DNA from: Terriglobia bacterium
GTDB lineage: Bacteria > Acidobacteriota > Terriglobia > Acidiferrales > UBA7541
Direction of reading: 5' to 3'
DNA length: 64,000 nucleotides
Assembly (NCBI GenBank): GCA_963819015.1
Contig: CAWFUN010000007.1
Span: forward strand, 677,741 to 741,740
In this document: one piece after another, positions 3,628-27,654 of the stretch
Numbering within the stretch: the stretch's first letter is position 1
Layout: each line of letters starts with the position of its first letter
Program-made: the position numbers and the translations under genes
Notes under the pieces: generated by a model
Told to the model about the DNA's origin: nothing
Database searches by the model: none
Seen by the model: the letters and a program-made list of their open reading frames with translations, nothing else

Positions 3628-4860
3628 CTATTCCGGCTCTTCGAGCATGGACTCCTGGCGGACCACCACCACGATGCCGCCTTCGGAAACGTAATACTTC
3701 TTGCGATCTTCCTCGAGGTCGTAACCGATGCGCGTGCGTTCGGGAATCGTGACGTGACGGTCGATGATCGCGTTGCGGATGTGCGAATGCCGGCCGATGT
3801 TCACGTGGTTGAAGATGATCGAGTTCTCGACCTCGCAATAGCTGTTCACCCGCACGTCGTATCCCACCACGCAGCGCTTCACGCGGCCGCCGGAGACGAT
3901 CGAGCCCGGCGATACGATCGAGTCCACCGCGGCCCCCATGCGTTGTGGATCGGCGAAAACGAATTTCGCCGGCGGATACTGCTGCAGGGTGCTCCGCAGC
4001 GGCCAGCTCTGGTCGTAAAGATTGAAGACGGGCGAGACGGAGACGAGATCCGCGTTCGCTTCGTAATACGCGTCCAGCGTGCCGACGTCGCGCCAGTACT
4101 GCGGCCCCGACTTGTTCTCGTCCACGAAGTTGTAGGCGTACACATGGTACTTCGAGAGAATGCGAGGCAGAATGTCCTTGCCGAAATCGTGCGTGGAGGT
4201 CTGATCTTCGGCGTCGGCGATCAGCGTCGGCACAAGGAACTGCGTATTGAACACGTAGATTCCCATCGAGGCGTTCACCTTGGTGTGGTTGTGCCGCGAA
4301 CGCTTGGGTACGGACGGCTTCTCCTGGAAGCCGGTGACGCGCCAGTGCGCGTCGGTGTCGATGACGCCGAATCGCCCCGCCGCTTCTTCAGGCGTCACTT
4401 CGAGCGTGCCCACTGTCATGTCGGCGCCCGAATCCACGTGCTGCTGCAACATCTTGTGGTAGTTCATCTTGTAGATTTGATCGCCGGAGAGCACGAAGAT
4501 GTAGCTCGAGCGGTCGCCGCCGATGGAGTAGATATTCTGGTAGATCGCGTCCGCCGTGCCGAGATACCAATTGGTCGAGACGCGCATCTGCGGCGGCAAA
4601 ATCTCGATGAAATCGCCGAGGCCCATCAGCGAGGACCATCCCGCGCGAACGTGCCGGTTCAGGCTGAGCGCTTTGTATTGCGTGAGAACGTAAACGCGGC
4701 GCAGGTCGCTGTTGATGCAGTTCGAGAGCGTGATGTCGATGATGCGGTAAATTCCGCCGAAGGGCACGGCGGGCTTCGCGCGGTCGCGCGTCAACGGCCA
4801 GAGCCGCTCGCCCTGGCCTCCCGCGAGGACCACTCCGATCGCGTCCTGCATCAGCGACAT
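3628..4860 (-). CDS. glgC: glucose-1-phosphate adenylyltransferase
   Basis: 410-aa ORF; N-terminus GVVLAGGQGERLWPLTRDRAKPAVPFGG and overall similarity to ADP-glucose pyrophosphorylase. Confidence 0.95.
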   Translation of the reverse strand: MSLMQDAIGVVLAGGQGERLWPLTRDRAKPAVPFGGIYRIIDITLSNCINSDLRRVYVLTQYKALSLNRHVRAGWSSLMGLGDFIEILPPQMRVSTNWYLGTADAIYQNIYSIGGDRSSYIFVLSGDQIYKMNYHKMLQQHVDSGADMTVGTLEVTPEEAAGRFGVIDTDAHWRVTGFQEKPSVPKRSRHNHTKVNASMGIYVFNTQFLVPTLIADAEDQTSTHDFGKDILPRILSKYHVYAYNFVDENKSGPQYWRDVGTLDAYYEANADLVSVSPVFNLYDQSWPLRSTLQQYPPAKFVFADPQRMGAAVDSIVSPGSIVSGGRVKRCVVGYDVRVNSYCEVENSIIFNHVNIGRHSHIRNAIIDRHVTIPERTRIGYDLEEDRKKYYVSEGGIVVVVRQESMLEEPE

Positions 4861-5337
4861 CGAAGCCCTCCCGCTCAGTTCCTGGTTGTGCTCGAACCTG
4901 TGCTTGTGCTCGCGCTTCTTATTGGATTGGTGCTTGCGCGTGCGCCTGCGCGTCGGCCCAAATCGCGAATGGCCATTTTAGTGCCGATGCCCCCTCTTTG
5001 CGAGCGCCTTTCCGCGTAGAGCCCACATGCAGGACCGGCGTGTGGGGCACCCGGGGAAAAATCGCGGACGTGCGGAGACAACCTCCGCCCGTACCGCAGA
5101 GAAACCTCTAATTCCTGCGAAGGTGTTGGTTTTTCACTTGTAGGGGCGGAGCTTGTCTCCGCCCGCTTTCAATCGTGCCGAGACCCTGCATTGGGGGAAG
5201 AATTAGAAGACGGGGCAGAAGAGGACAAACAAGAGTGCCTGTCCTAGTGGGAAAAACCCCCACACCCAAAACCGACGTGTGGGGCGCCCTCATCTCGGTA
5301 CGTTGCGGTGTATTGCAACAGTGGTATCCTCAACGCA

Positions 5338-8438: not shown

Positions 8439-9800
8439 TCAGTCTGCGTTCCGTTCGAGCAACGATCCGCGCGGGTCTCCGGCAATGCGGCCGCGCTCGA
8501 AGATGAGCTTTCCTTTCAGGAAGGCTGCTTGCACCACGCCGGCGAGCGGCTTTCCATCATAAGGCGTCAGTTTGTTCTTCTGGTGCAGGCCGGACTGCTT
8601 CACGTGAAACACTTGGCTTGGATCCCAGATGACAAGATCCGCATCCGCGCCGGTTTCAAGCGTCCCCTTGCGGCCCGCGAGGCCCGCCATCCGAGCAGGC
8701 GCCTCCGCGAGCCAGCGAGCAACGGCTTCCACGCCGAACCCGCGCGTTCGCGCAGCCGTCCAAACCGCGGGCAATCGCAATTCAAGCGAAGCGATGCCGC
8801 CCCGGGCTTTGAAGAAATCGCCGTCCGCGCCGGTCTTGAGCTGCGCGGGACACGGACAATGATCGGAGACGATGAAATCAATCACGCCTTTGTGAAGCGC
8901 CCGCCAGAGCACATCGCGATTGGCGGAATCGCGAATGGGCGGGGCGCATTTGAATTGGACCGCGCCCGCGGGCACGCCGCCGCTGCGGAAATAAAGATAG
9001 TGCGGGCACGTTTCGACGCTGATGCGCACACCTTCCCGACGCGCGCGGCGAAGAATCGGCAGCGCCAGCGCGGCGGAGAGGTGCACGATGTGGATGGGCG
9101 CGCGAAATTCCCGGCCGAGCCCCACGAGCAAAGCGATGGCGTCGCGTTCGGCCTGCGGCGGCCGGGAACGCAGCCAGGTGCGATACCGGCGCGGATCCTC
9201 GCCGTGCAAGCGCCGCATGGCGGCGCCGATTGGCCGGGGCGCCTCGGCGTGCGCAAGCAGCGAAACGCCGAGCGAAGCGAGAATTGGCAACGCTTCGCGC
9301 AAATCGCTCTCGGAAACGTGCCCAAATTCCGGAACGCCGGACGGAACGAGAAAACATTTGAAGCCGAAGATGCCGGCATCGCGCAGCGGGCGCAGATCGT
9401 TTGCATTCCCCGGCACGACGCCGCCCCAGAAGCCGACGTCCACCCAGCACTGTCCGCGCGCGGCGCGCCGCTTGGCTTCGAGTGCGGCCACGGTCGTTGT
9501 CGCGGGAATGCTGTAGAGCGGCATATCGATCAGCGTGGTCGTGCCGCCGGCAGCGGCCGCGCGCGTGGCGGACTGGAAACCTTCCCAATCGGTGCGGCCG
9601 GGCTCGTTGATGTGGACGTGCGTATCCACGAGGCCGGCCATGACGACCGCGCGGCCGGCATCGTGTAACGGGCAGCCCGGGGGAATCGACTCCCAATTCT
9701 CGACGGCGGCGATTTTTCCGCCACGGATGTGGATACTCGCGCGGCGGACGCCGCTTGGCGTGACGACTCGCTCGCTGCGTACCACCAATTCGGCGCTCAT
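8439..9800 (-). CDS. allB: allantoinase (cyclic amidohydrolase superfamily)
   Basis: 453 aa; DTHVHINEPGRTDWEGF metal-binding motif, GGTTT, and length equal to AllB. Adjacent to uricase and HIUase. Confidence 0.8.
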   Translation of the reverse strand: MSAELVVRSERVVTPSGVRRASIHIRGGKIAAVENWESIPPGCPLHDAGRAVVMAGLVDTHVHINEPGRTDWEGFQSATRAAAAGGTTTLIDMPLYSIPATTTVAALEAKRRAARGQCWVDVGFWGGVVPGNANDLRPLRDAGIFGFKCFLVPSGVPEFGHVSESDLREALPILASLGVSLLAHAEAPRPIGAAMRRLHGEDPRRYRTWLRSRPPQAERDAIALLVGLGREFRAPIHIVHLSAALALPILRRARREGVRISVETCPHYLYFRSGGVPAGAVQFKCAPPIRDSANRDVLWRALHKGVIDFIVSDHCPCPAQLKTGADGDFFKARGGIASLELRLPAVWTAARTRGFGVEAVARWLAEAPARMAGLAGRKGTLETGADADLVIWDPSQVFHVKQSGLHQKNKLTPYDGKPLAGVVQAAFLKGKLIFERGRIAGDPRGSLLERNAD

Positions 9801-9953
9801 GAGGCGAGAGACTGCAGAGATTCTTCGCGGATGCTCTGCGCAACGCGCAGGCGGTAGCGCGCGCGGCCCGTCACATTGTCGCGGCCTTCTTTCCGCCGCA
9901 CCGAGTGACCCAGCAATTTGTGTTCGGCGGAGGCCATGACGCTCGCGGGCTGC

Positions 9954-10421
9954 TCAATACTTGACGCGGCCGGGAGATTCTAGCCACGCGCGAAACGCCG
10001 CCTGCGCTTCATCGCGCATCATCGGCTCCATTTCTATCTTCCGCTCGGCGGGGAGTGCGCGCAACTCATCGTAGATGAAAGTATCGTCGAAGCCGGCGGC
10101 GGCCGCATCCTCGGCGGTGCAGGCGTAGTAGACGTGGTCCGGCCGGGCCCAGTAAATCGCGCCGAAACACATGGGACACGGGTAGCAGCTCGTATAGATT
10201 TCGCAGCCATCGAGATGAAACGCGCCGAGAGCGCGGCAGGCTTCGCGGATGGCGATGATCTCGGCGTGGGCCGTGGGATCGTTGGACGAAGTCACGCGAT
10301 TCGTGCCTTCGGCGATGATTCGGCCGTCTTTCACGACGACGGCTCCGAACGGCCCGCCGCGGCCGGAACGCGCGCTCTCGATCGCCAATTCAATGGCGCG
10401 CTGCATGAAGGGGCTGGTCAT
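9954..10421 (-). CDS. guaD: guanine deaminase (CDA-fold, GuaD type)
   Basis: 155 aa; near-collinear with B. subtilis GuaD (GGPFGAVVVKDG.IIAEG.N.VTSSNDPTAHAEI.AIR.AC..LGA..LD.C.IYTSC.PCPMC.GAIYWARP...YYA....DAA.AGFDD.FIY.E). Confidence 0.75.
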   Translation of the reverse strand: MTSPFMQRAIELAIESARSGRGGPFGAVVVKDGRIIAEGTNRVTSSNDPTAHAEIIAIREACRALGAFHLDGCEIYTSCYPCPMCFGAIYWARPDHVYYACTAEDAAAAGFDDTFIYDELRALPAERKIEMEPMMRDEAQAAFRAWLESPGRVKY

Positions 10422-10478
10422 GGTGTCGCCAGATTGCGCATGCAGAATTCTAACAGTTTACGCAAAAAACGGGGTTAG

Positions 10479-10583
10479 GGTGTCATTCCGAACCCGCTTG
10501 CAGCGGGTGAGGAATCTCTCTTCGTTCAAATCCCAAGAAAAGAGAGATTCCTCGGCACGGAGCGTGCTTCGGAATGACAACAG
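10479..10583. repeat. ~105-nt cloverleaf-like palindromic element; candidate structured sRNA, REP/MITE or complex terminator
   Basis: Outer inverted repeat gtcattccgaa/ttcggaatgac, a 14-bp inner inverted repeat gaggaatctctctt/aagagagattcctc, and two small internal hairpins (cccgcTTGCAgcggg; gcacgGAGcgtgc). A TTTGATTTTTTC tract follows on the plus strand. Confidence 0.4.
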
Positions 10584-10821
10584 TTTGATTTTTTCGGTGC
10601 CCTACTGGCGAAAACTGCGGCTTTTCAGCGCACTTTCTGCGTGTTTCGCGCGAAGCCGGTACGTCCAGACCGCCGAATGGAATCTTTGGCGTCGGAAGGT
10701 GCCCCAAACGTAGGGCAGTTCCCCAGCTAGGACTTAGTGGAGTGGTATAATTACACTGAGAATATCCGTTGAAAGAGAAAACGCAAGAAGGGTCCGCCAC
10801 AACGGAAATGAGTTAAGGCGC

Positions 10822-11172
10822 GTGAAAACACCCGATAAGGTATTGGTCTCCTCCGGCGCGATTGTCGCTCTCACAACGGCAACGTTTCCTTACGTTAGAG
10901 GCTACGGGACAAACCTATTTCAGATCGTAGTTCTTAACGCTTGGGGTATCGTTGCCCATTTTTCCTCCGGTAGTTTCGCCGACCTTCATCACAGCGTAGT
11001 CTGGCCAGTTGCGCTAGTCCTGAACATGGCTGCATTCTCTGTGGTTGCCCTCCCCTGCTGGGCAGTTCTCCGAAATCGCGCACCTAAGATTGCCGCGGTA
11101 GCGACCATATGCTGGTTATGCCTATACGTCGCCATGCTATTCTTCTTATTCCCCGCAACCGATGGCCCTTGA
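10822..11172 (+). CDS. hypothetical small membrane protein
   Basis: ORF with a GTG start; 3 predicted TM segments; lower-GC codon usage; no recognisable domain. Confidence 0.35.
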   Translation: MKTPDKVLVSSGAIVALTTATFPYVRGYGTNLFQIVVLNAWGIVAHFSSGSFADLHHSVVWPVALVLNMAAFSVVALPCWAVLRNRAPKIAAVATICWLCLYVAMLFFLFPATDGP

Positions 11173-11408
11173 CTTGGGATTTCCAGGTGTAATCTCTCTT
11201 TCGCGGTCGAATTCCCAGTACCGGAATGTCAAGGAAACAGCACAGTAGCATCGGCCTGCGCGACTCCAGCCTCGGGGGGCGACACAAACCGGATCACCAT
11301 CACCGAGCGGGAACGCAGCTGAACATCCCGCAAATTGGGATATGCTATGCCGCGATTAGAGAGGCGAACCGCTTGTCGCTCTCCACACACCTAGATTAGG
11401 GGAAAAGC

Positions 11409-12440
11409 ATGGAGCTGAATACGAGGCCGTTCGGGAAGACCGGCATGCAGATCACGACGGTGGGATTCGGGGCGTGGGCGGCAGGCGGCGGCGGTTGGGC
11501 GTTCGGCTGGGGGCCGCAAGATGACGCCGAGTCGGTTGCGTCGATCCGGCGCGCAGTCGAGTTGGGCTTGAATTGGATCGACACCGCAGCGGTCTATGGG
11601 CTGGGCCACTCCGAGGAGGTCGTCGGGCGCGCCCTCCGTGAGATTCCGCCGGGCGACCGGCCGTTCGTCTTCACGAAGTGCGGACTGATTTTCGATCGCA
11701 ACAAACCGTTCGAGCCGGCGCAGCGCGTGCTGAAGCCGGAATCGCTGCGCAAAGAGGTGGAGATTTCTCTGCAGCGGCTCGGAGTCGAACGGATCGACCT
11801 CTATCAATTTCACTGGCCGGATGAAAGCGGCGTGCCGGTGGAGGATTCTTGGGGAGAGATGGCGCGGCTTGCTGAGGAAGGGAAAATTCGCGCGGCGGGC
11901 GTTTCCAATTTCGATGTTCCGCTGCTCGAGCGTTGCGAACGAATCCGGCACGTGGATTCGCTTCAACCGCCGTTTTCGCTGATCCGGCGGAAAGCCGCGG
12001 AAGACGTGATTCCGTGGTGCGCGGCTCACTCCACGGGCGTGATCGTCTATAGCCCTATGCAATCGGGAATACTGACGGATTCGTTCACGGCGGAGCGCGT
12101 CGCGAAACTCGCGGACGACGACTGGCGGAAGCGCGCGCCGTACTTTCAGCAGCCTGCATTGAACCAGGGCCTGCAACTGCGCGATGCGCTGCGTCCGATC
12201 GCAAAGCGGCACAACACGGCGGTCGCTTCCATTTCGGCGGCTTGGACGCTGGCTTGGCCCGGCGTGAGCGCAGCCATCGTGGGCGCGCGGTCGCCGTCGC
12301 AAGTGGACGGCTGGATTGGCGCGGGACGAATCGAGCTGACGCCTCAAGATCTCGACGAGATCGAGGTCGCGATCCAATCGAGCCAAGCGGGTTCGGGACC
12401 GAATCGGCCGCCGCGCGCGACCGCCAAGGTGAGCCGCTGA
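11409..12440 (+). CDS. aldo/keto reductase family oxidoreductase
   Basis: 343 aa; GFGAW..GG, IDTAAVYG, LQRLGVERIDLYQFHWPD and IVYSPMQSGILT motifs of the AKR superfamily. Confidence 0.9.
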   Translation: MELNTRPFGKTGMQITTVGFGAWAAGGGGWAFGWGPQDDAESVASIRRAVELGLNWIDTAAVYGLGHSEEVVGRALREIPPGDRPFVFTKCGLIFDRNKPFEPAQRVLKPESLRKEVEISLQRLGVERIDLYQFHWPDESGVPVEDSWGEMARLAEEGKIRAAGVSNFDVPLLERCERIRHVDSLQPPFSLIRRKAAEDVIPWCAAHSTGVIVYSPMQSGILTDSFTAERVAKLADDDWRKRAPYFQQPALNQGLQLRDALRPIAKRHNTAVASISAAWTLAWPGVSAAIVGARSPSQVDGWIGAGRIELTPQDLDEIEVAIQSSQAGSGPNRPPRATAKVSR

Positions 12441-12524
12441 GCCCGGCGGGCGGTTGTCGCAGCGGCCGGATAACAGATCCGCGCCCAATTTCGCACTCGA
12501 CCCCATTTTCGAAAGGAGAACTGA

Positions 12525-12941
12525 ATGGCTGCACCTAATCGTTTGACCGCGTTAGTCGGCCGCGTCCTTGTTACGCCCGTCTTCCTGGTTACAGGTTATA
12601 TGAAGGCCACTCATTTTTCGGCGACGGCCGCATCCTTGGCATCCATGAAGATTCCGCTGGCCACGTTTGCGGCGGCGGTGGCCATACTGATCGAATTGGG
12701 AGGCGGAATCAGCGTGGTTCTCGGATTCAAGACGCGATTCTGGGCGTGGATCATGTTCCTATATCTGATTCCGGTCACTTTCCTGGTGCACTCGTTCTGG
12801 AAGATGTCCGGGGCGGCACAGATGGACAACATGATTCACTTCCTCAAGAACTTGTCCATTATGGGAGCATTGCTGCTATTGGCAGCGTGTGGGCCAGGCC
12901 CATTGAGCCTGGATGAGGCGGGCGGAAAATCCAAGACGTAA
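12525..12941 (+). CDS. DoxX family membrane protein
   Basis: 138 aa with a 4-TM profile and AAGGAGAACTGAATG RBS; resembles DoxX (TQO small subunit-like). Confidence 0.75.
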   Translation: MAAPNRLTALVGRVLVTPVFLVTGYMKATHFSATAASLASMKIPLATFAAAVAILIELGGGISVVLGFKTRFWAWIMFLYLIPVTFLVHSFWKMSGAAQMDNMIHFLKNLSIMGALLLLAACGPGPLSLDEAGGKSKT

Positions 12942-12966
12942 GTGCAGAAGATAGACTGTAAGATAA

Positions 12967-12999
12967 GGGCGAGGACATGCGTTCGCGCTGGTCTCGCCC
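12967..12999. terminator. candidate bidirectional terminator hairpin between DoxX and cydB
   Basis: gggcgag(g)ac / gtctcgccc 9-bp stem with a 14-nt loop; it sits between two convergent genes. Confidence 0.3.
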
Positions 13000-13048
13000 C
13001 TTCCCATTCCTGTTTACCAGACCATCCGAGTTTATTTCCCCTTCAGGA

Positions 13049-14095
13049 TCAATAGCCCTCTCCCGAAGCGGGCAACTTGGTCTTGCCGGAGAAGCGGCGG
13101 TAGTTGAACACGATGTAGCCGGTCGCGAGCGCCATGCCGATCACCCACCAGATGAGCCCTACCCGCAGTCCATACGCGGGGGCCTTGGCATTATGGACTG
13201 TGAGGCCGAAGGATGGATCCGTGCTCGCGGGCAAAACGTAAGGATACAGGCTGAACGCGGCGCTCGTGAGCATGCCCAACAAGTAGGCGCAAGACGCAAG
13301 AAACGCCTTGCGGTCGTCGTGGCGACGGCTGAACGTGAGCGCGGCAATGAGCCCGACGACTGCAACGGCCGGGAAGACCGCGCCCCACGGATGCGCCGGG
13401 AAATTCGGCCACAGTTGCGGCTGAACGCGGAAGCTGACGTAGGTGATCAGCCCGGTCAGTAGCGCGACCAGCCACCAAACCACCGCCGCCAAGGTGCGAG
13501 CGCGCGCCTGGAGTTCTCCCTCCGTCTTGTGAGCAATCCAGAATGCGCCATGCAAAGTGAGGACGGCCAGAGCTGCGACGCCGATCAAGATCGTGTACCA
13601 ATCGAGGACGCCGGGATTCGGCCCCAGGCGAAAATTCGTCCAGAGCGACTCGAAGAAACGGCCCTGCGCGTCGAGGGGCACGCCGCGAACGACGTTGCCG
13701 AGCGCCGCCCCGTAAAAAATTGCGAGGAGAACGCTCGCGAGCGCGAAGCCGCCGTCCCAGAACGCGGCCCAGATTGCGCCGGACACGTGGTTGCGAAACT
13801 CCACGGAAATGCCACGCAGGATCAGCAGCCAGAGAACCATCATCAGCGGCAGATAGAATCCGCTGAAGCTGGAGGCGTAGAGGGCAGGAAACGCGAAATA
13901 AAGCGTGCCGCCGCCGGCGAGAAGCCAAACCTCATTGCCATCCCATACGGGGCCAATGGACCGGAGGATGATGCGGCGCTCCACGTCGGTTCGCGCGATG
14001 AGCAGGTGCAGGATTCCCGCGCCCAGATCGAAACCGTCGAGGACGACGTACATCGCGAGCATTACCGCGACGAGGCAAAACCAAATCGTTTCCAT
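13049..14095 (-). CDS. cydB: cytochrome bd ubiquinol oxidase subunit II
   Basis: Start taken at METIWFCLVAVMLAMYVVLDGFDLGAGIL (TGA-g-ATG junction with cydA); the track ORF extends to a TTG at 14197. Typical CydB sequence. Confidence 0.85.
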   Translation of the reverse strand: METIWFCLVAVMLAMYVVLDGFDLGAGILHLLIARTDVERRIILRSIGPVWDGNEVWLLAGGGTLYFAFPALYASSFSGFYLPLMMVLWLLILRGISVEFRNHVSGAIWAAFWDGGFALASVLLAIFYGAALGNVVRGVPLDAQGRFFESLWTNFRLGPNPGVLDWYTILIGVAALAVLTLHGAFWIAHKTEGELQARARTLAAVVWWLVALLTGLITYVSFRVQPQLWPNFPAHPWGAVFPAVAVVGLIAALTFSRRHDDRKAFLASCAYLLGMLTSAAFSLYPYVLPASTDPSFGLTVHNAKAPAYGLRVGLIWWVIGMALATGYIVFNYRRFSGKTKLPASGEGY

Positions 14096-14096
14096 C

Positions 14097-15479
14097 TCAG
14101 CCTCCTCTCCGAGCCTGCACTGCGCCCTGATTCGGCAATGGGGCCGAGGGCCCCGGAGGCTCCTCGCCGGGACCGCGCTCGATCTCGAGATAGACAAGAT
14201 AGAGAAAGAGAATCGCGAGAACGGTATAGGTGCCGAAGAACCCCAGCAGCGTAAACCACGTATTGCCCGCCGAAACTTGCGATGAGACGCCTTGCGGCGT
14301 CCTCATCAGGCCGTAGATGAGCCAGGGCTGCCGGCCCGTCTCGGCCGTAATCCAACCGGCCGTATTCGCAATAAAGGGCAAGGGAAGCGAGAGCATCAAA
14401 ATCCAAAGCATCGCCCGCGAGTCGTAGAGCTTGCGCCGAAAGAGTTTCCAAGCTGCGATGAGGAGGACGGCAATGAAGATCGTCCCCAGACCAACCATGA
14501 TGTGATAACTGAAATACAGCAGCGGAATCTGATCCGGCCACTGCGACTCCGAAAAGCTGTCGAGCCCGCGCACCTGAGCGCTCCACGACCGGTATGTGAG
14601 AAAACTCAAGGCGCGCGGCACCATCAGCGGATTATCGAGCGTGCGCTTGTTCACGTCCGGCTGCCCGAGCACGGCGATGGGCGCTCCCTGTTGTGTGTGG
14701 AACAAACCTTCCATCGCGGCAAGCGCCGGCGGCTGATAGCGCGCTACCATCTTGCCCTGTCCGTCGCCGGTGGGCCAAAGCTGCAAAAGGGCCGCGACGA
14801 CGCCCACCGTCACGGCCGTGCGCACGAAGAGGCGTCCAAATGCTTCGTGACGCTTCTCGAGTAAATAGAACGCGCCGACCGAGGCCATGACGAAGCATGC
14901 GGTCTGCACCGAGCCGAGCATGTTGTGCGCGTATTGCACGAGCGCCCACGGGTTCAGTATGAGCGACCAAAAACTTGCCAGGCCGAACTGGCCGCTTGCG
15001 TCAATCAAATAGCCGACGGGATGCTGCATCCAGGCGTCGGTCGCGATGATGAGATAGCCCGAGAGCCAGGAGCCGAGAAACATCATCAGCGAAGACAGCC
15101 AGTGCAGTACGTTGCCGAGGCGTTTTTCACCGAAAAGAAAAAGTCCGAGGAAACTCGACTCAAGGAAGAAGGAAAAGACGCCTTCCATGCCGAGGGTTTG
15201 CCCGATTACGCCGCCGGCAGCTTTTGAGAAAACCGACCAGTTCGTGCCGAACTGGAATTCCATCGGGATGCCGGTGACCACCCCCAGGGCAAAACTGATG
15301 CCGAAAATCTTGGCCCAAAAGCGCGCCGCGCGATTCCAGAAGTCGTCGCCGGTGCGCAGCGCGACCGTCTTCAGAATGAAGATGAGCAGCGCCAACCCCA
15401 TCGTGAGTTGCGGAAAAATGTAGTGAAACGTTGCGGTGAAGGCGAACTGCAAGCGGTGTACGGCGAGTGCCTCTTCCAT
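14097..15479 (-). CDS. cydA: cytochrome bd ubiquinol oxidase subunit I
   Basis: 460 aa; N-terminal FAFTATFHYIFPQLTMGLALL, the Q-loop and GxxEFQFGTNW motifs of CydA. Confidence 0.93.
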   Translation of the reverse strand: MEEALAVHRLQFAFTATFHYIFPQLTMGLALLIFILKTVALRTGDDFWNRAARFWAKIFGISFALGVVTGIPMEFQFGTNWSVFSKAAGGVIGQTLGMEGVFSFFLESSFLGLFLFGEKRLGNVLHWLSSLMMFLGSWLSGYLIIATDAWMQHPVGYLIDASGQFGLASFWSLILNPWALVQYAHNMLGSVQTACFVMASVGAFYLLEKRHEAFGRLFVRTAVTVGVVAALLQLWPTGDGQGKMVARYQPPALAAMEGLFHTQQGAPIAVLGQPDVNKRTLDNPLMVPRALSFLTYRSWSAQVRGLDSFSESQWPDQIPLLYFSYHIMVGLGTIFIAVLLIAAWKLFRRKLYDSRAMLWILMLSLPLPFIANTAGWITAETGRQPWLIYGLMRTPQGVSSQVSAGNTWFTLLGFFGTYTVLAILFLYLVYLEIERGPGEEPPGPSAPLPNQGAVQARRGG

Positions 15480-20953: not shown

Positions 20954-21092
20954 TCTCGTCTTCCATTATATAAGAGCCATTTCTTCGCTCGAAACAAACG
21001 AAGCACGCGCGGTTCCTGCCAGGTTTCGGCAGGCGGTTAGTGACCCGCCTTCCCGTGCTCGGGATGTTCCATCGCCTGCCGCGGCGGACTTC

Positions 21093-21220
21093 GGCGCGGC
21101 AAGCCCGCCACCTGCCGCTGCGGGTGAACTGCGTCCAGGCTCTGGGCTGCGGCGCGACAAGCCCGCCACCTGCCGCTGCGGGTGAACTGCGTCCAGGCTC
21201 TGGGCTGCGGCGCGACAAGC
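21093..21220. repeat. 58-bp tandem direct repeat, 2.2 copies
   Basis: ggcgcg[g/a]caagcccgccacctgccgctgcgggtgaactgcgtccaggctctgggctgc at 21093-21150 and 21151-21208 (1 mismatch), a partial third copy from 21209, and a distal fragment ggcgcggcaagcgagggac at 21305-21323. Contiguous with no spacers, so not CRISPR. Confidence 0.6.
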
Positions 21221-21385: not shown

Positions 21386-21524
21386 ATGTATCTGCTGAAT
21401 CCAAAGGGGTTACGGGCAAAAATCGTGGATCTGCTGATTCTAAAGGGTTTAAAGTCCTTTGTTTTCAACATCATAAGAAAATGCTTGTAAGTGCTGAATC
21501 TAAAGGACTTAAAGTCCTTTGCTG
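21386..21524. repeat. AT-rich region with three iterated ctgctgaatc[c/t]aaagg motifs and near-palindromic aaaggacttaaagtccttt; candidate operator/iterons at the left edge of the R-M island
   Basis: atctgctgaatccaaagggg (21390), atctgctgattctaaagggtttaaagtcctttg (21429-21461) and agtgctgaatctaaaggacttaaagtcctttg (21490-21521). Local GC is well below the window average. Confidence 0.4.
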
Positions 21525-21760
21525 TGTATGACTTTCGGGGGCTGCACAAAAATGGTGCAATTGGAGGGATTGCGGAGTCGAAATTCTTAGCCACGGATGG
21601 ACACGGATCGACACGGACGGGGAGAGTCGAGGTTGCGATGCCGGGCGGGAATCGTTCGAAATGTTGTTCCGAGTTCACGCCGCATGTTAGCACACAAGTA
21701 CCGGCGTGTCAAGTATATTTAGTGAGTTACTATTCGAATAGAGGGCGTCGCGGCCGCCCG

Positions 21761-22453
21761 TCAGAGTTCGCCGCGAAAGGCTTTCGAGAGGATCGAAGGC
21801 ATGAGGGCGTCGAGATCGGCAGAGACTTCAGGGTCGGGATTCTCGAATACGTCTCGCAACTCGGCATTGACGGCGACCTCGTGATCCTTCTGCCATAACA
21901 AGTATTCGCCCGATACCCAAAGATAGTGGTCCAAATCCCGATTGGAAAACTGGTGGTCTATATTCGTTCTGAGATTCTCGAAGTTCGCAAAAAAAGCCAA
22001 ATAGGGATGATCCTTATTGGAGGCGTAGTTGCCTTTTCCCAGGTGTAGCCTGACCATGCGAACGGAATATGAATCCATGATTGGAAATCGTTCCGCGTCT
22101 ATGAAGAAGTGAGCAAATTTTGAGGCAAAGCTATGGAAGTGCGGATACTTCTTCCCTGCTTCCTCAGGAAGGCACGCAAGAGTTTCGACCAACTCAGGTC
22201 CGGGGCTCGCTAGACTGTGTTTCTCAAGAACCTCCGAGACGTGGAGCGCCACTGGCACGATGGCTATGACGTTCGTGCCGTAAAGCGCGTTTATGACAGT
22301 GGCTTTGATGAGCGCTTCGCGCGGAGCGAAGCCGGGAAGTTGTAGGGACACCCATGCAAGGGCTTCATCTTTTAGCTTCCACTGTTGAAGACTGCTGTGG
22401 AGTCGTTTGGCTGCCTCAAGCTGGCCTGGTTGAATTGGTATCGAGGCGGGCAT
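21761..22453 (-). CDS. hypothetical protein translationally coupled to hsdS; C-terminal 17 aa identical to the HsdS C-terminus; possible HEPN-like Rx4H
   Basis: 230 aa. Its ATG overlaps the hsdS TAA (TAATG). The last ~60 nt (21761-21820) are 90% identical to the hsdS 3' end (22453-22512), so both proteins end LDALMPSILSKAFRGEL. ENLRTNIDHQF fits Rx4H. No TRD motifs. Low GC. Confidence 0.5.
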   Translation of the reverse strand: MPASIPIQPGQLEAAKRLHSSLQQWKLKDEALAWVSLQLPGFAPREALIKATVINALYGTNVIAIVPVALHVSEVLEKHSLASPGPELVETLACLPEEAGKKYPHFHSFASKFAHFFIDAERFPIMDSYSVRMVRLHLGKGNYASNKDHPYLAFFANFENLRTNIDHQFSNRDLDHYLWVSGEYLLWQKDHEVAVNAELRDVFENPDPEVSADLDALMPSILSKAFRGEL

Positions 22454-23635
22454 TAGAGTTCGCCGCGAAAGGCTTTGGAGAGGATGGAGGGCATTAGGGC
22501 GTCGAGTTCGGCGGCGCTGTGAGTTTGAAGTTGCTCCAGAGCTTCGAGTTTCTTGTACAGGTCATCGAGTTCTAACACAGACTGTCTTTGCTCGTCCGGC
22601 GTTGGCACCGGGATCGCAAAATCGAGGAGCTTTTCCGTTTCGAGCTTTCGAGTGTCGTGTGTCGATTTTTCGATGAGGTCAAGTAGGCGCGGATTGAGTG
22701 CCCAAATACAAGTGCACAGGTATTCCGGCAAGATTTCCTCGTTGGGTACCATTGCCTTAATGTCTTGATTGATCGCGGCTGGAACTCTCAGTATCGCTGC
22801 CGGAACTGTGTGAGCGAGAATCATCCCGCGGACCACTATTAACACGGAGTTAGGATCAAGCAGTTTGGCATTTGTTTCCCGGGTGGCTGTTTCAGAGATA
22901 TGATCCTGGGAATTGTAGAGTTCGCGCACCTTCATGTCCTTTGGTGAAATCCAGGGGGTGGAACCACTCCAGTACATTGGATTCGATTTGCTCGGGGTGC
23001 CTCCTCCTTTTAGCGACACGAGATCGCGTAGCCGTTTGACTACCGCCTGTGTTGAGTTTTTGAGAAGTTGCTCTGCAGCCCTCTGCCAAAGGCGGAGACG
23101 CTCTGTTTGAGCCTCGGCGCGGAGTGTTTGGGTCTGTGCGAATTTTCTCAGCTAATTCCTCGATGCGAGAGACGATGCGGCGTTGTTCGTCGAGGGAAGG
23201 AAGGGGAACCTCACTCTTCAGAAACCCCTCAGGCTGTAGGCGAACCCTGTTTGTGGTTCCCTCGCTCGCCGCTTTGCAGGCATCAACGAATTCAGCCGTG
23301 CCGAAGTACGCGTCGAGGAAGGCGGGAACGGCAGACTGTAAATTGACTGCGAACGCCCAAAAGTCATTGGTTACGATCGCCCCATCCAATTCTAGTGGCA
23401 CGATGCCAATTGCGCCGTTGCGAGCATCGATGCGAGAGAGCAGAACCTGACCCTGGCGAACTTGCCATTGCCTGGTGGTTCGTATGGCCGATCCGAGTTT
23501 TTCGCCCCTAAGCACCACTCCCTTGTGGAAGAGGCGCACGGTTACCTGCTTGTATGTTTCATGAGGAGCGATCGCGACACTATCCTGGACGCGGGTCAGA
23601 ACACTCGCTAGCGATCGTTTCGGGTAGGCCCTCAT
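22453..23635 (-). pseudogene. hsdS: Type I restriction-modification specificity subunit HsdS, interrupted by a -1 frameshift in the central conserved region (~23135-23150)
   Basis: Frame A (22892..23635) gives TRD1 plus LPSLDEQRRIVSRIEELAEKI and then nonsense. Frame B (22453..23019, extendable upstream) gives ...AQTQTLRAEAQTERLRLWQRAAEQLLKNSTQAVVKRLRDLVSLKGGGTPSKSNPMYWSGSTPWISPKDM (TRD2) ending LPSILSKAFRGEL. Confidence 0.75.
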
Positions 23636-23640
23636 ACAGG

Positions 23641-25204
23641 TTACTTGCGAAGGGCGGCTTGGATTTCTTCAACCAGGGCCAGAATATGCCGCTCCTTAGC
23701 GCATAAGTCGTCTACGAGTTTCCCGGGTGGCATGTGCTCAAAGTCTTCTTTGGCATTCGGGTTCTTGATGTCGAGATTGGCGGATACAACCGCACCCTGT
23801 TCATCGTACTTCAGAACAGTCGAGACGGGCACTTTCCAGGCAAGCTCGTTCTCTTGGCGTTTGCCCCACCACTCTAGGCACGGCTCAAATTCCTCGAATC
23901 GCATGGTTTGTGTTTTCGTGTAATTTTTCCGGCCCTCGGGGAGGGGTTGCTCGTAATACCAAATCTCCTTGGTTGGTCCCGAGCGGTCAAAGAAGAGAAG
24001 ATTTGTCGGGATATTCGTATAGGGTGCGAAAACTCCGTTCGGCAATCGGACGATCGTATGGAGGTTGAATTCTTTGAGAAGCTCTTCCTTGATGCGCGCG
24101 CAAATACCGTCGCCGAACAGTACGCCGTTCGGCACAACCATGCCGCAGCGGCCCGGCTTTGCGCCTCCCACCGGGCGGCGAAGTTTGCGCATGATGAGCT
24201 GGAGGAATAGAAGGGCGGTCTCGGCGGTCTTCTTGTCCTCGGGGAAATTCGAGAGGATCCCGCGCTCTTCCTCGCCGCCAAAGGGCGGATTGGTCATGAT
24301 GATGTCCACGCGGTCCTTGTCCCCGATTTCGCGCAAGGGAAAGCGGAGGGCGTTTTCTGGATCAATGTCCGGCGATTCCAGGCCGTGGAGCAGGAGGTTC
24401 ATCTGGCATAGCAGGTAAGGAAGCGACTTCGGTTCGATTCCGAAAAGGGTGCCCTTCTGCAGCCGATTGAAGTCTTCCGTCTTCTTGCATTGCTCTTGCA
24501 GGTGCGTAAATGCTTCGACGAGAAAGCCGCCCGTGCCCGCCGCAGGGTCGAGGATGGTTTCGCCCAGGCGGGGATTCAAGACGGAGACGATGAATTTGAC
24601 AACGGGACGCGGCGTGTAGAATTCACCGGAATCGCCCGCCGAGTCTCGCATTTCGCGGAGCATGGACTCGTAGAGCAAGCCTAGCGTGTGGATTTCATCT
24701 TTGGACGTGAAGTGGATTTCATTGATTTTGTTGACCACATCGCGGAGGAGGTAGCCGTTGGTCATGCGGTTGAACGTGCCCTGGAAAACCTTGGCGATCA
24801 CGTCGCGGCGGTCACCGTTTGCGCTGCGCAGCGAACGCAGATAAGCAAAGAGGCCCGTCGCCACGCTTGCCGTCCGGGCGGATGGCTTCGTCCTGATTGA
24901 TGAAGGCGATTAGCTCTGGGCCGGTGATGCCCATCGGGTTCGCAGCCCAATCGCGCCAGCGGTAGGGCGGTTCGATGGCGGGGCGGAAGCGCTTGCCGGC
25001 GAGTTTGGCTTCTTCGGCGCGGATGCTCTCCATGTCATCAAGGAACTTGAGGAACATGATCCAGGTGAGCATCGGCAGGCGGTCAAGGTCGCCGTTGAGG
25101 CCTTTGTCCTTGCGCATGATGTCGCGGCAGGATTTGACAATGGAAGCGAGCTGCTGGGCGGTGGATTGCGGGAGTTCCTTGTTGCTGTTTTTTGTTCGGG
25201 CCAT
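23641..25204 (-). pseudogene. hsdM: Type I R-M methyltransferase subunit HsdM, interrupted by a +1 frameshift in a GGG run (~24854-24856)
   Basis: N-terminal HsdM_N domain in ORF 24812..25204 (...FINQDEAIRPDGKRGDGP then nonsense). The catalytic part is in ORF 23641..24864 (GLFAYLRSL...NPPFG...), offset by one nucleotide. Removing one G from gacGGGcct restores ...KRGDGLFAYLRSL. Confidence 0.75.
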
Positions 25205-27522
25205 AGGTGTCTAGTTAGGGCTGCGTAGAGGAGCGTCTGCAATTCGTCCACGGCCGCGCGCAGCATTTCCGCGCCGCCGAACATTTGCGAAATCTCCATC
25301 ACGCTGCCTCGATCTGAAATCGGCGGCACTTTCAGAATCTCCGGGATGGCGAATTGCGCCGTGCCATAGTCTACATACTTATCGAGAATATCGTGCAAGA
25401 CTTCGCGGGCTTTTTCGGAATACCGCTCGAAGAAGGCCTTCTGTTCTTTCCGAAGCCGTTCGGCGCGCTCTCGGCGCGTGCGAATCGGGGCGCTGTAAGC
25501 GACCTGGCAGAGAAGATCGAACGGGTCCGCGTCCGGTTGGTTTGATGCAGCGATGAGTTCTTCGAGCGCAATGCCGCGCTCTTCCAGGGCCTGAATGATT
25601 TCAGCGCGTTGGTCGGCGTCAGACCATTTTGAGCGGAGATCCGCCGCGGAGGGGCACATACTCGCGCACTTTCTCGCCCGTGTAGTCCGTGAAGCGGACG
25701 ACGCGAAGCTGCTTGCCTTCGGCATCCAGTTCGGAAACGAAGTGGGCCACGATTTCGATGGAACCCTGGTCCACGTAAAATTTGCGGGGCGCTTGTTCCT
25801 TCTTGCCTCCGGGTTCGAGGATTTGCGGCGGCAAGGGATCGGCGATGACTTCCTCGGGCTTTTCGATGTCGGCTTTGACGTTCTCGCCTGCGGCGTTCAT
25901 TTCCTCGACGGTCACCAAAGCGGGTTCGCCATCGAAATCGGGATCGGAGAAAAGGCGCGTGGCGCTTCCGGTGTAATCGAGGATGTTGAAAAAGAGCTTG
26001 CCGTAGTCGTCCTTGACGCGGGTGCCGCGTCCGATGATCTGCTTGAATTCGGTCATCGAGTTGATGATGCGAGCGATGACGATGTTCTTGCAGGTTTGAA
26101 CATCCACGCCGGTGGTCAGAAGTTGAGAAGTAGTGACAATCGTTGGGGTTGCAGTCTCAAGCTCCATGAAGCGGTCTAAGTGGCCGCGTCCCGTTTTGCC
26201 TTCATCCGCGGTGATGCGGACAACGTAATCCGGGTATTGCTGGACCAAATCCGCGTTGAGATTGTTGAGAGCGTGGCGCATGTCTTCGGCGTGTTCCTGG
26301 TCAACGCAAAAGACGATGGTTTTGTCGAATCTCCCATTCGCTTTCAGAAAATCGGTGAGATTGCGGGCGATGGTTTCGGTGCGAGGGAGGAGAGAGACTT
26401 TGCGCTCAAAATCCTTGGTGGTGTATTCGGCGTCCGGGATTTCGCGCCCTAAGCGGTCAAGCTGGCCACGATTCGGCCGCCAGCCAACGGAATCGGCGCT
26501 GGTGACGATGCGATGGACGCGATAGGGCGCCAGGAAACCGTCTTCGATGCCCTGCCGCAAGCTGTAGGTGTAGAGCGGATTGCCGAAGTAGAGATACGTG
26601 TCGCGGTTGTCTTCGCGCTTCGGGGTGGCGGTCATGCCGAGCTGGAAGGCAGGCTCGAAATACTTCAGGATATCTTTCCAGTTGGAATCGTCGGCTGCGC
26701 TGCCGCGGTGGCACTCGTCCACGACGATGAGGTCAAAGAAATCCCTCGGGTAGTCACGGTAAAGGCCGGGGCGGCGTTCGTCTTTGGCGATCGCCTGATA
26801 GGTCGCGAAATACATCTCGCGGCTCTTGATGGCCTCGCCCTCGATCTTGTGCCGGGCGTCGCCAAAGGGGGTAAAGATTTTGTCCTTGGGGTCGTCCACG
26901 AGGATGTTGCGGTCGGCAAGATAGAGAATGCGAGGACGGCGTGCTGGATCACCAGTCCGATTCCATTTGGTGTTCCAGAGTTTGTAGCAAATCTGGAAGG
27001 CGACGACGGTCTTGCCGGTGCCCGTGGCAAGGGTGAGAAGAACGCGCTTCTGGCCCTGAAGAATGGCGCGGATGGCGCTGTTGATGGCGATCTCTTGGTA
27101 GTAGCGCGGCGATTTTCCGGAGAGATGGTAGTACGGGGTGAGAAGGCGTTCGACGATCTGGCTGGGGATGTTTTCGCCGTGCTTGAGGCGCTGCCAGAGT
27201 TCGTCGGGAGACGGGAAGCTTTCGAGAGTGCTGTTCGAGGCCGGTCAGTGAAATCGTGCTCGACGATGCCGTGGCCGTTGGTGGAGTAGGCAAACTTCAG
27301 ACCAAGGATTTGTGCGTACTCCATCGCCTGGCCGAGACCATCGGCGGGTTTCTTGTAGTCGGCCTTGGCTTCAACGATGGCGATTGCAAAGTCAGGGCGG
27401 TAGCGGAGGAGATAGTCGGCGCGCTTCTGTTTGCGGCGGATCGTGCGGTTGCCAGCGACGACGATCCGGCCATCGGTGAAAGTCCGCTGCTCGTTGATGT
27501 GGTCGTCCGTCCCAGCCTGCAC
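25204..27522 (-). pseudogene. hsdR: Type I restriction enzyme R subunit HsdR (EcoEI-like C-terminal domain family), with at least two frameshifts (~27240-27250 and ~25650-25655)
   Basis: Three consecutive frames carry collinear HsdR sequence: the N-terminal nuclease domain (ORF 26665..27522, real up to NGHGIVEHDFT); the helicase core (frame of 25619..26899, which extends upstream to STLESFPSPDELWQRL...YYQEIAINSAIRAILQGQKRVLLTLATGTGKT, VVDECHR, QLLTTGVDV, QIIGRGTR); and the C-terminal domain (ORF 24910..25725 from SAADLRSKWSDADQRAEIIQALEERG... to ELQTLLYA). That frame then reads through the hsdM start with no stop. Confidence 0.75.
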
Positions 27523-27654
27523 GCGTAGAGCTTCGGGAGGACATATTTTCGACAGGTGTCTGCTTCGGTGAGTAAAGGCATGCCTCTGATATCAGCGCCG
27601 CTCGAATTACGACGGCGAATAGTATGGGTTCGAGTAATGCAGGATAACACGCCG

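Follow-up and report, generated by a model that had tools for sequence, protein, structure and literature searches.

A glycosylase-like cargo gene, bounded by copies of the hsdS 3' end, probably rides in a type I restriction-modification operon of a Terriglobia bacterium

Genes unrelated to restriction-modification (R-M) ride inside some type I operons, as do the rlo genes of Campylobacter hsd loci, and the orphan cassette arrays of Rhs and CdiA-CT, like integron arrays, hold interchangeable cargo, each unit bounded by a short conserved anchor segment or site. Here we describe a 230-amino-acid open reading frame (ORF), named orfX, which closes an EcoEI-type type I R-M operon of the order hsdR-hsdM-hsdS-orfX in a 64,000-nucleotide (nt) stretch of DNA from a Terriglobia bacterium (contig CAWFUN010000007.1, positions 677,741 to 741,740; hereafter the window). 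Among described systems, prrC of the EcoprrI locus is an unrelated gene that sits within a type I operon and shares its transcript (PMC12707154), and conserved hsdS segments act as crossover points in the domain movement of Helicobacter hsdS (PMC3077401) and in the pneumococcal tvr/ivr loci (PMC6265443). The closest functional precedent found is that of the END nucleases, in which an inactivated EndoIII/Ogg domain, fused to PLD, NucS-like PD-DExK or McrB modules, serves as a sensor of hypermodified phage DNA (2025 preprint, PMC12191111). The orfX locus brings together three themes already described, namely unrelated genes placed within type I loci, recombination that uses conserved stretches of hsdS, and the use of EndoIII-like modules for defence. 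From sequence comparison and structural models, we consider it somewhat more probable than its competitors together that orfX, at the 3' end of the operon, forms a cargo cassette that is glycosylase-like, exchanged through repeats, translationally coupled and independent of the R-M enzyme.

As with prrC and the rlo genes, orfX is an unrelated gene embedded in a type I locus. Those genes stand between subunit genes, whereas orfX follows hsdS and is bounded by a duplicated hsdS 3' end; moreover, PrrC has ABC-ATPase and anticodon-nuclease domains, neither of which Pfam, NCBIfam or PADLOC found in orfX, and orfX persists without the R-M genes. The Helicobacter and pneumococcal loci also use short conserved hsdS coding repeats as crossover points for variable modules, but what they shuffle are target-recognition domains, often with inverted repeats and a dedicated recombinase, while in the present case entire foreign genes lie between direct repeats of the 3' end. 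Next to the window operon there were neither additional target-recognition domains nor a recombinase ORF of the ivr/tvr shufflon type, and its two repeats are direct. The arrays described below share with Rhs, CdiA-CT and integron arrays the principle of interchangeable cargo bounded by copies of an anchor segment. In Rhs and CdiA-CT the 5' edge of each toxin tip is repeated and the cargo is toxin and immunity genes, whereas here it is the 3' end of the anchor gene and the cargo is of defence type; unlike integrons, these arrays have no integrase and no attC site. In common with END nucleases, orfX has an EndoIII/Ogg-like all-alpha domain, and reading non-canonical bases in defence, as END does, would be its counterpart role; some relatives of orfX have a small PD-(D/E)XK nuclease as partner, the two genes overlapping. 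In contrast, orfX of the window is a separate, single-domain protein with no adjacent nuclease gene, and it lacks detectable sequence similarity to EndoIII/Ogg profiles, its distinction from END being drawn from the description of those enzymes. The END domain is inactivated, whereas orfX keeps an invariant Lys and Asp and may therefore be active.

The orfX start codon has one base in common with the hsdS stop codon (ctcTAATGccc), and a 58-nt direct repeat with 91% identity places a second hsdS 3' end at the end of orfX (Table 1), so that both proteins share the C-terminal ending LDALMPSILSKAFRGEL. An initial annotation of this DNA had already reported the 230-amino-acid ORF with its ATG overlapping the hsdS TAA, and the duplication of a ~60-nt hsdS tail; both observations were confirmed. 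Compared by codon from a common GCC onwards, the two tails differ by four synonymous changes, one Glu-to-Asp replacement and a TAA-to-TGA change of stop codon. A profile of 25 hsdS 3' ends detected with nhmmer exactly two copies in the 64-kb window (E values of 4e-15 and 1e-13). Moreover, an independent assembly from a different sequencing run (locus L074; Logan, run ERR11594403) matches the window at 99.7% identity over 21715-24294 and contains the same ORFs together with the two tails. The duplication is therefore not a mis-assembly. Similar overlaps of 1 or 4 nt (TGATG, ATGA) precede orfX in L001, L006, L007, L015, L049, L066, L068, L070 and L072.

Table 1. Features of the orfX locus in the window.
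Feature	Positions	Strand	Evidence
orfX: 230-amino-acid ORF with ATG start; PF27257 (HI_0787_N), predicted all-alpha, HhH-GPD DNA-glycosylase-like fold	21761..22453	-	
Distal junction repeat: second hsdS 3' end, fused in frame and encoding the last 19 residues of orfX	21763..21820	-	Repeat search (91%); nhmmer match at 21761-21831; codon comparison
Motif of highest conservation, S108-FAS-K112-FAHFF-x6-FPI-x-D127: candidate site of activity or DNA contact	22073..22132	-	Conservation in 92 sequences
TAATG stop/start overlap, putative hsdS to orfX translational coupling	22451..22455	-	Sequence
Proximal junction repeat: authentic hsdS 3' end (end of second conserved helix and tail)	22455..22512	-	Repeat search; nhmmer; codon comparison; matches the C-terminus of the Specificity_I and Methylase_S profiles
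hsdS, split by a frameshift into 22892-23635 and 22453-23019	22453..23635	-	Methylase_S matches on both pieces; comparison with intact L070 and L066 HsdS; same split in L074
hsdM, one frameshift near 24855	23641..25204	-	N6_Mtase match; tblastn with L070 HsdM: two frames, 89-91% identity
hsdR (EcoEI_R_C type), three frameshifts near 27522, 27240 and 25660	25219..27581	-	Pfam matches on three ORF pieces; tblastn with L070 HsdR: four segments, three frames, 86-95% identity

To place the window among its relatives, 114 non-redundant orfX loci from genomes and metagenomes were judged (L-numbers denote these loci and P-numbers homologous proteins). In 35 of them orfX was linked to a type I operon or to what is clearly left of one, always in the order hsdR-hsdM-hsdS-orfX and with a 1- or 4-nt stop/start overlap; the remaining 79 had no hsd signature detectable by the criteria used, and 77 of the 114 were devoid of hsd genes. 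The HsdS-type tail was present on orfX in 18 of the 35 linked loci vs two of the 79 others (Fisher p = 1.5e-9), and on inspection both exceptions had an hsdS-tail remnant just upstream. A degraded ending of the form DLxxLLP...R.F is kept by many family members outside hsd loci.

The divergence of orfX was uncoupled from that of its operon. Between the window, L070 and L076, HsdR is 93-95% and HsdM 85-89% identical, whereas orfX is only 48-52% identical, and across loci the identities of orfX and HsdM were uncoupled (rho 0.28, p 0.09). When L070 was compared with the window by blastn, homology was confined to hsdR-hsdM (83.5% over 4 kb), a 48-nt central conserved region of hsdS and the two tails, and it ended at the orfX stop codon. 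The proposal that the duplicated tail is a recombination junction bounding exchangeable cargo, made with the initial annotation, is thus well supported. Tail nucleotide identity was higher within loci (0.78) than between them (0.67; permutation p = 0.0006), a difference to which locus relatedness and common codon usage contribute. The orfX tail of the window resembles HsdS tails more closely (0.81-0.91) than those of the orfX genes most related to it (0.77), a pattern that recent gene conversion in the window lineage and change in the sister lineage would explain equally well.

A survey for hsdS followed by variable cargo between copies of the repeat, suggested with that annotation, found three to four copies bounding different cargo in L098, L100, L093/L096 and L088. 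In L098 (1-2755), an 85-nt hsdS 3' segment occurs in four full copies, between which lie a NucS-like gene, orfX and a DUF4760 gene; the first and fourth copies share 99% identity, and a 25-codon mini-ORF (MQAETAAELNVLLPSILDRAFRGEL) consisting of the repeat alone precedes orfX. In L100 (1480-3841), hsdS is followed by a TIR-like gene, a repeat remnant, orfX and a GIY-YIG-RAMA gene. L093 (5680-7346) and L096, which come from two samples, and also L088, have a third repeat copy after the gene that follows orfX. Among orfX alleles that are 88-95% identical to each other, the slot between hsdS and orfX is empty (L099, L101) or occupied by the TIR-like gene (L100) or the NucS-like gene (L098). These alleles are polymorphic for insertions at the repeat site, as would be expected from circle integration by a single crossover or from replacement by a double crossover.

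Judged by these comparisons, the last ~60 nt of hsdS act as a junction repeat, with one copy at the end of hsdS and another at the end of the cassette. Homologous recombination in these repeats would insert, delete or swap cassettes, and this would explain both the divergent orfX alleles in near-identical operons and the arrays in which repeat and cargo alternate. The end of the repeat contains a purine-rich, Shine-Dalgarno-like run together with the stop/start overlap, as in AAGGGGGAACTGTGATG; the run is strongest in other loci (AAGGGGGA) and weaker in the window. Because the repeat brings both features, each cassette would be translationally coupled to whatever precedes it, and the next gene would be coupled likewise.

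The operon that precedes orfX in the window is a pseudogene cluster, and, as a correction to the initial annotation, hsdS proved to be split by a frameshift when aligned with the intact HsdS of L070 and L066. Relative to the closely related L070, whose HsdR is 94% identical, five frameshifts interrupt the three hsd genes from 22453 to 27581, four at the positions of Table 1 and the one in hsdS at 23019-23138; the encoded proteins are still 86-95% identical to those of intact relatives. Two single-base insertions, at most 12 nt apart, were seen at about 27515-27525. Sequencing error was considered as the origin of the frameshifts and judged unlikely. No interruption was seen in other window ORFs of 1.4-2.4 kb, and L074 has the hsdS split too; the damage is therefore genuine and specific to the R-M genes. 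GC content at third codon positions was 0.58-0.61 in hsdS and orfX (21761-23635), 0.71-0.74 in hsdM and hsdR (23641-27581) and 0.75-0.82 in flanking genes, and the variable part (hsdS and orfX) looks more recently imported than the rest of the operon.

Beside this damaged operon orfX is intact, and the same was observed in other loci where little of the operon is left. In L068 (2380-2616) and L072 (462-818), independent mini-ORFs fuse the HsdR N-terminus (ADTCRKY..AGW and RADYILR..VEAK, respectively) in frame to the C-terminal helix and tail of HsdS, and their stop codons overlap the orfX ATG. Such interior deletions, in which the promoter-proximal start and the coupling were kept, suggest selection for orfX expression, although two in-frame events are not statistically significant. 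Only the hsdR start is left upstream of an intact orfX in L003 and L108, and only an hsdS 3' remnant in L001, L091, L093 and L077. As orfX is intact at these remnants and most of its family is unlinked to hsd genes, dependence on the R-M enzyme in the manner of PrrC is argued against. For the same reason, namely that orfX is kept where the operon is deleted or frameshifted, the idea of an R-M-dependent toxin was rejected. Given these arrangements, orfX probably functions by itself, with foreign DNA as the most likely target.

The initial annotation had recognised no family for orfX and suggested that it could be novel, which is wrong at the family level. A precomputed match to PF27257.1 is available for an identical protein (P0001) and for all 120 homologues listed, out of 152 found, so that orfX counts as a member of PF27257 (HI_0787_N), and a full HMMER search recovered 2,099 clusters at 50% identity. 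Searches of orfX with Pfam (in a library without the PF27257 model), NCBIfam and PADLOC left the body of the protein unmatched; in PADLOC only the last 17-19 residues (212-230) matched, to the C-terminal end of type I Specificity_I. The literature yielded nothing on PF27257 or HI_0787. Residues F109, K112, F117, D127, H137, D175, Y177 and G182 are strictly invariant among 92 sequences, and S108, H115, P124 and I125 are at least 90% conserved. One or two copies of DUF7669 are fused N-terminally in P0241, P0256, P0275, P0322 and P0336. P0368 has a C-terminal extension of ~90 residues to which no family was assigned; a likeness of this extension to a modified-DNA reader was considered and dropped, as neither the PDB nor Pfam supported it. 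The DUF7669 fusions and the P0368 extension may point to a ligand or partner of PF27257.

Two independent models had pLDDT values of 92.8 and 96.5. The orfX model is all-alpha, with a two-lobed fold in common with EndoIII, Ogg and MutY, and structural searches retrieved DNA glycosylases and not HEPN proteins; in Foldseek against the PDB, the top of the list was enriched in DNA glycosylases, not significantly. Profile searches of PDB sequences returned nothing relevant, a Pfam scan of 24 members up to E = 10 gave only noise and no HhH-GPD match, and hhalign against Ogg-HhH had a probability of 1%, which is not significant. As no sequence or profile comparison backs the glycosylase link, the resemblance to HhH-GPD glycosylases is a remote one, at the level of the fold. 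Within it, K112 and D127 are set in a helix-loop-helix context with FPIxD that resembles the helix-loop-Asp arrangement of the HhH-GPD superfamily. From the known glycosylases of this superfamily (Ogg2/Tm1821, EndoIII, MutY, AlkA), orfX differs in having no profile-level similarity to them, no classical hPGhG hairpin next to the conserved Lys and Asp and no Fe-S cluster motif; moreover, those enzymes are housekeeping, whereas the orfX family is patchy and horizontally transferred. Judging from the models, the likeliest activity of orfX is DNA binding followed by the flipping out or excision of an unusual base in foreign DNA, which it would carry out by itself or, in certain relatives, jointly with a small PD-(D/E)XK nuclease whose gene overlaps its own.

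The neighbourhoods of orfX make the hitchhiker with a defence-type role, as first annotated, plausible. A PD-(D/E)XK gene (DUF4365/Mrr_cat, ~155 amino acids) overlaps orfX in L015, L020, L022, L025, L148 and L149, GIY-YIG-RAMA genes lie downstream of it in L007, L043 and L100, and defence islands with TIR, SIR2, SLATT and Bil genes surround L070 and L076. In the non-hsd genome loci no recurrent neighbour was found, the 129 Pfam families detected occurring each in at most two of the 150 neighbours scanned.

Several other observations were made around these genes. Directly upstream of the intact hsdR of L070 (1-2309) are a TGT-like gene, an Ogg-HhH glycosylase gene and QueC, which may form a 7-deazaguanine DNA-modification cluster; with this Ogg-HhH gene, a bona fide Ogg-type glycosylase is also present in the L070 island. 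Downstream (8783-14278) are SIR2, two ThsB-TIR genes, SLATT, ArdC and Fic. L015 has a 268-amino-acid unannotated ORF (4294-5100) between hsdR and hsdM. A conserved 261-amino-acid protein (start MPQFxRYIGIDYxGA), with no Pfam or PADLOC match, is encoded directly after orfX in L066 (7587-8372), L093 (6435-7220) and L096. In L046 (2165-2938) and L051 (7174-7953), the start of orfX shares one base with a xylose-isomerase-like TIM-barrel gene; the AP_endonuc_2 assignment of that gene raised the idea of a base-excision partner, which was dropped because sugar isomerases and IolE are its nearest relatives among solved structures and in NCBIfam. Finally, 50 nt past the orfX stop codon of the window there is a strong sigma-70-like promoter match (TTGACA-17-TAACAT, extended TG; 21684-21712, minus strand) directed away from orfX, and beyond it a 58-nt tandem repeat (21086-21220) and direct and inverted repeats of 26-44 nt (21387-21521). 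There was no Rfam match here, and the region could be a repetitive extragenic palindromic (REP)-like element or a small RNA.

A number of points weigh against the reading of orfX as a self-sufficient, glycosylase-like cassette. On the side of the fold, a local profile alignment of the motif region was no better than its reversed control, so that both the catalytic mapping of K112 and D127 and the catalytic competence of orfX are unproven, and the best, non-significant alignment of hhalign placed the hairpin at L39-PGF (LPGF, residues 39-42) and not at K112/D127. That K112 and D127 are the catalytic Lys and Asp of an HhH-GPD enzyme is thus something we infer, with LPGF as a competing mapping. 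On the side of defence and mobility, no PADLOC defence model fits the body of the protein, and the plasmid and phage collections contained no orfX homologue. Regarding exchange, the arrays with at least three repeats lie on short metagenome contigs, where 85-nt repeats may be mis-joined, although L093 and L096 show one and the same array in two samples. Every locus was found through orfX, so that loci which kept the R-M genes and lost orfX are invisible and the relative persistence of orfX and operon cannot be judged. Lastly, intact orfX tails have a ratio of nonsynonymous to synonymous differences (pN/pS) of 0.35-0.42, a constraint that a passive recombination scar does not explain.

This last point favours the most serious alternative, a rather unlikely one in our judgement, in which the tail is a docking peptide by which orfX would bind HsdM/HsdS, either serving as an accessory or guard subunit, with PrrC as the model, or providing the type I enzyme with a modified-base sensor. 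The tail constraint was estimated between loci at a near-saturated pS of about 0.7, the HsdS copies giving 0.16-0.23, and it is conditioned on intact tails. The tail differences in the window are also mostly synonymous (four synonymous, one conservative), variant residues (S/A, D/S, K/R) usually match the HsdS tail of the same operon, and PrrC provides the precedent of a gene in a type I locus under the control of the enzyme (PMC12707154). However, the tail is missing from 17 of the 35 hsd-linked orfX genes, some of them beside intact operons (L049, L076, L090, L127, L129), premature stop codons fall inside it in L100, L123 and L126, and orfX is intact where hsdM/hsdS are deleted or frameshifted. 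Moreover, the ~19 residues in common are far below the roughly 40-residue conserved helix.

Considerably less probable is a repair function for the R-M system, like that of Vsr or Mig beside cytosine methylases, in which orfX would remove a lesion that arises at the methylated base or is caused by it. The glycosylase-like fold and the translational coupling to hsdS would suit such an enzyme, but an adjacent methylase is missing in most of the family, the exchange of orfX between operons does not follow HsdM, orfX persists after methylase loss, and its partners are nucleases and not repair genes.

We give hardly any weight to a HEPN-type RNase toxin or abortive-infection effector, for which the starting point was the string ENLRTNIDHQF, read in the initial annotation as a HEPN Rx4-6H motif. 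The R-x5-H string is indeed present (residues 162-168), but R162 and H168 are not conserved among 24 or 92 homologues, L161 alone in this stretch being invariant or nearly so; HEPN proteins are absent from the top 50-60 matches listed for each structural search, and there was no Pfam, NCBIfam or PADLOC match. Just as improbable is a degenerate third target-recognition domain or half-HsdS, or an assembly artefact, since the PADLOC Specificity_I models that match the last 17-19 residues match nothing else, the model is all-helical with no Methylase_S match outside the tail, orfX belongs to a large independent family, and the same structure recurs in the independent assembly and in many other loci; the third half-subunit, named beforehand as what would refute a cargo gene, is thereby excluded.

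In any case, a mobile, translationally coupled cargo gene for a glycosylase-like protein that reads DNA bases and acts against foreign DNA is the probable identity of orfX. A broader picture, which we offer as tentative, would make the hsdS 3' end a recombinase-free, integron-like capture site, where any gene with an acquired copy of the ~60-85-nt junction could be inserted, stacked, swapped and translationally coupled behind type I R-M operons through ordinary homologous recombination. The most frequent cargo of this site would be PF27257, which would also be a previously unrecognised antiviral base-excision or base-sensing enzyme of the HhH-GPD type, with its tail docking on the methylase.

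How hitchhiking defence genes arrive in type I operons is seldom clear, and here the hsdS 3' end appears to be at once the crossover point, the boundary of the cassette and the translational coupler. This would be a simple route for the build-up and exchange of defence genes without a dedicated recombinase. The analysis also gives a domain-of-unknown-function family with about 2,100 clusters a predicted fold and, in DNA bases, a plausible class of substrate, in line with recent evidence for EndoIII/Ogg-like domains as sensors or attackers of modified phage DNA. Should it be confirmed, the junction repeat would offer a handle with which to search environmental genomes for new defence cargo.

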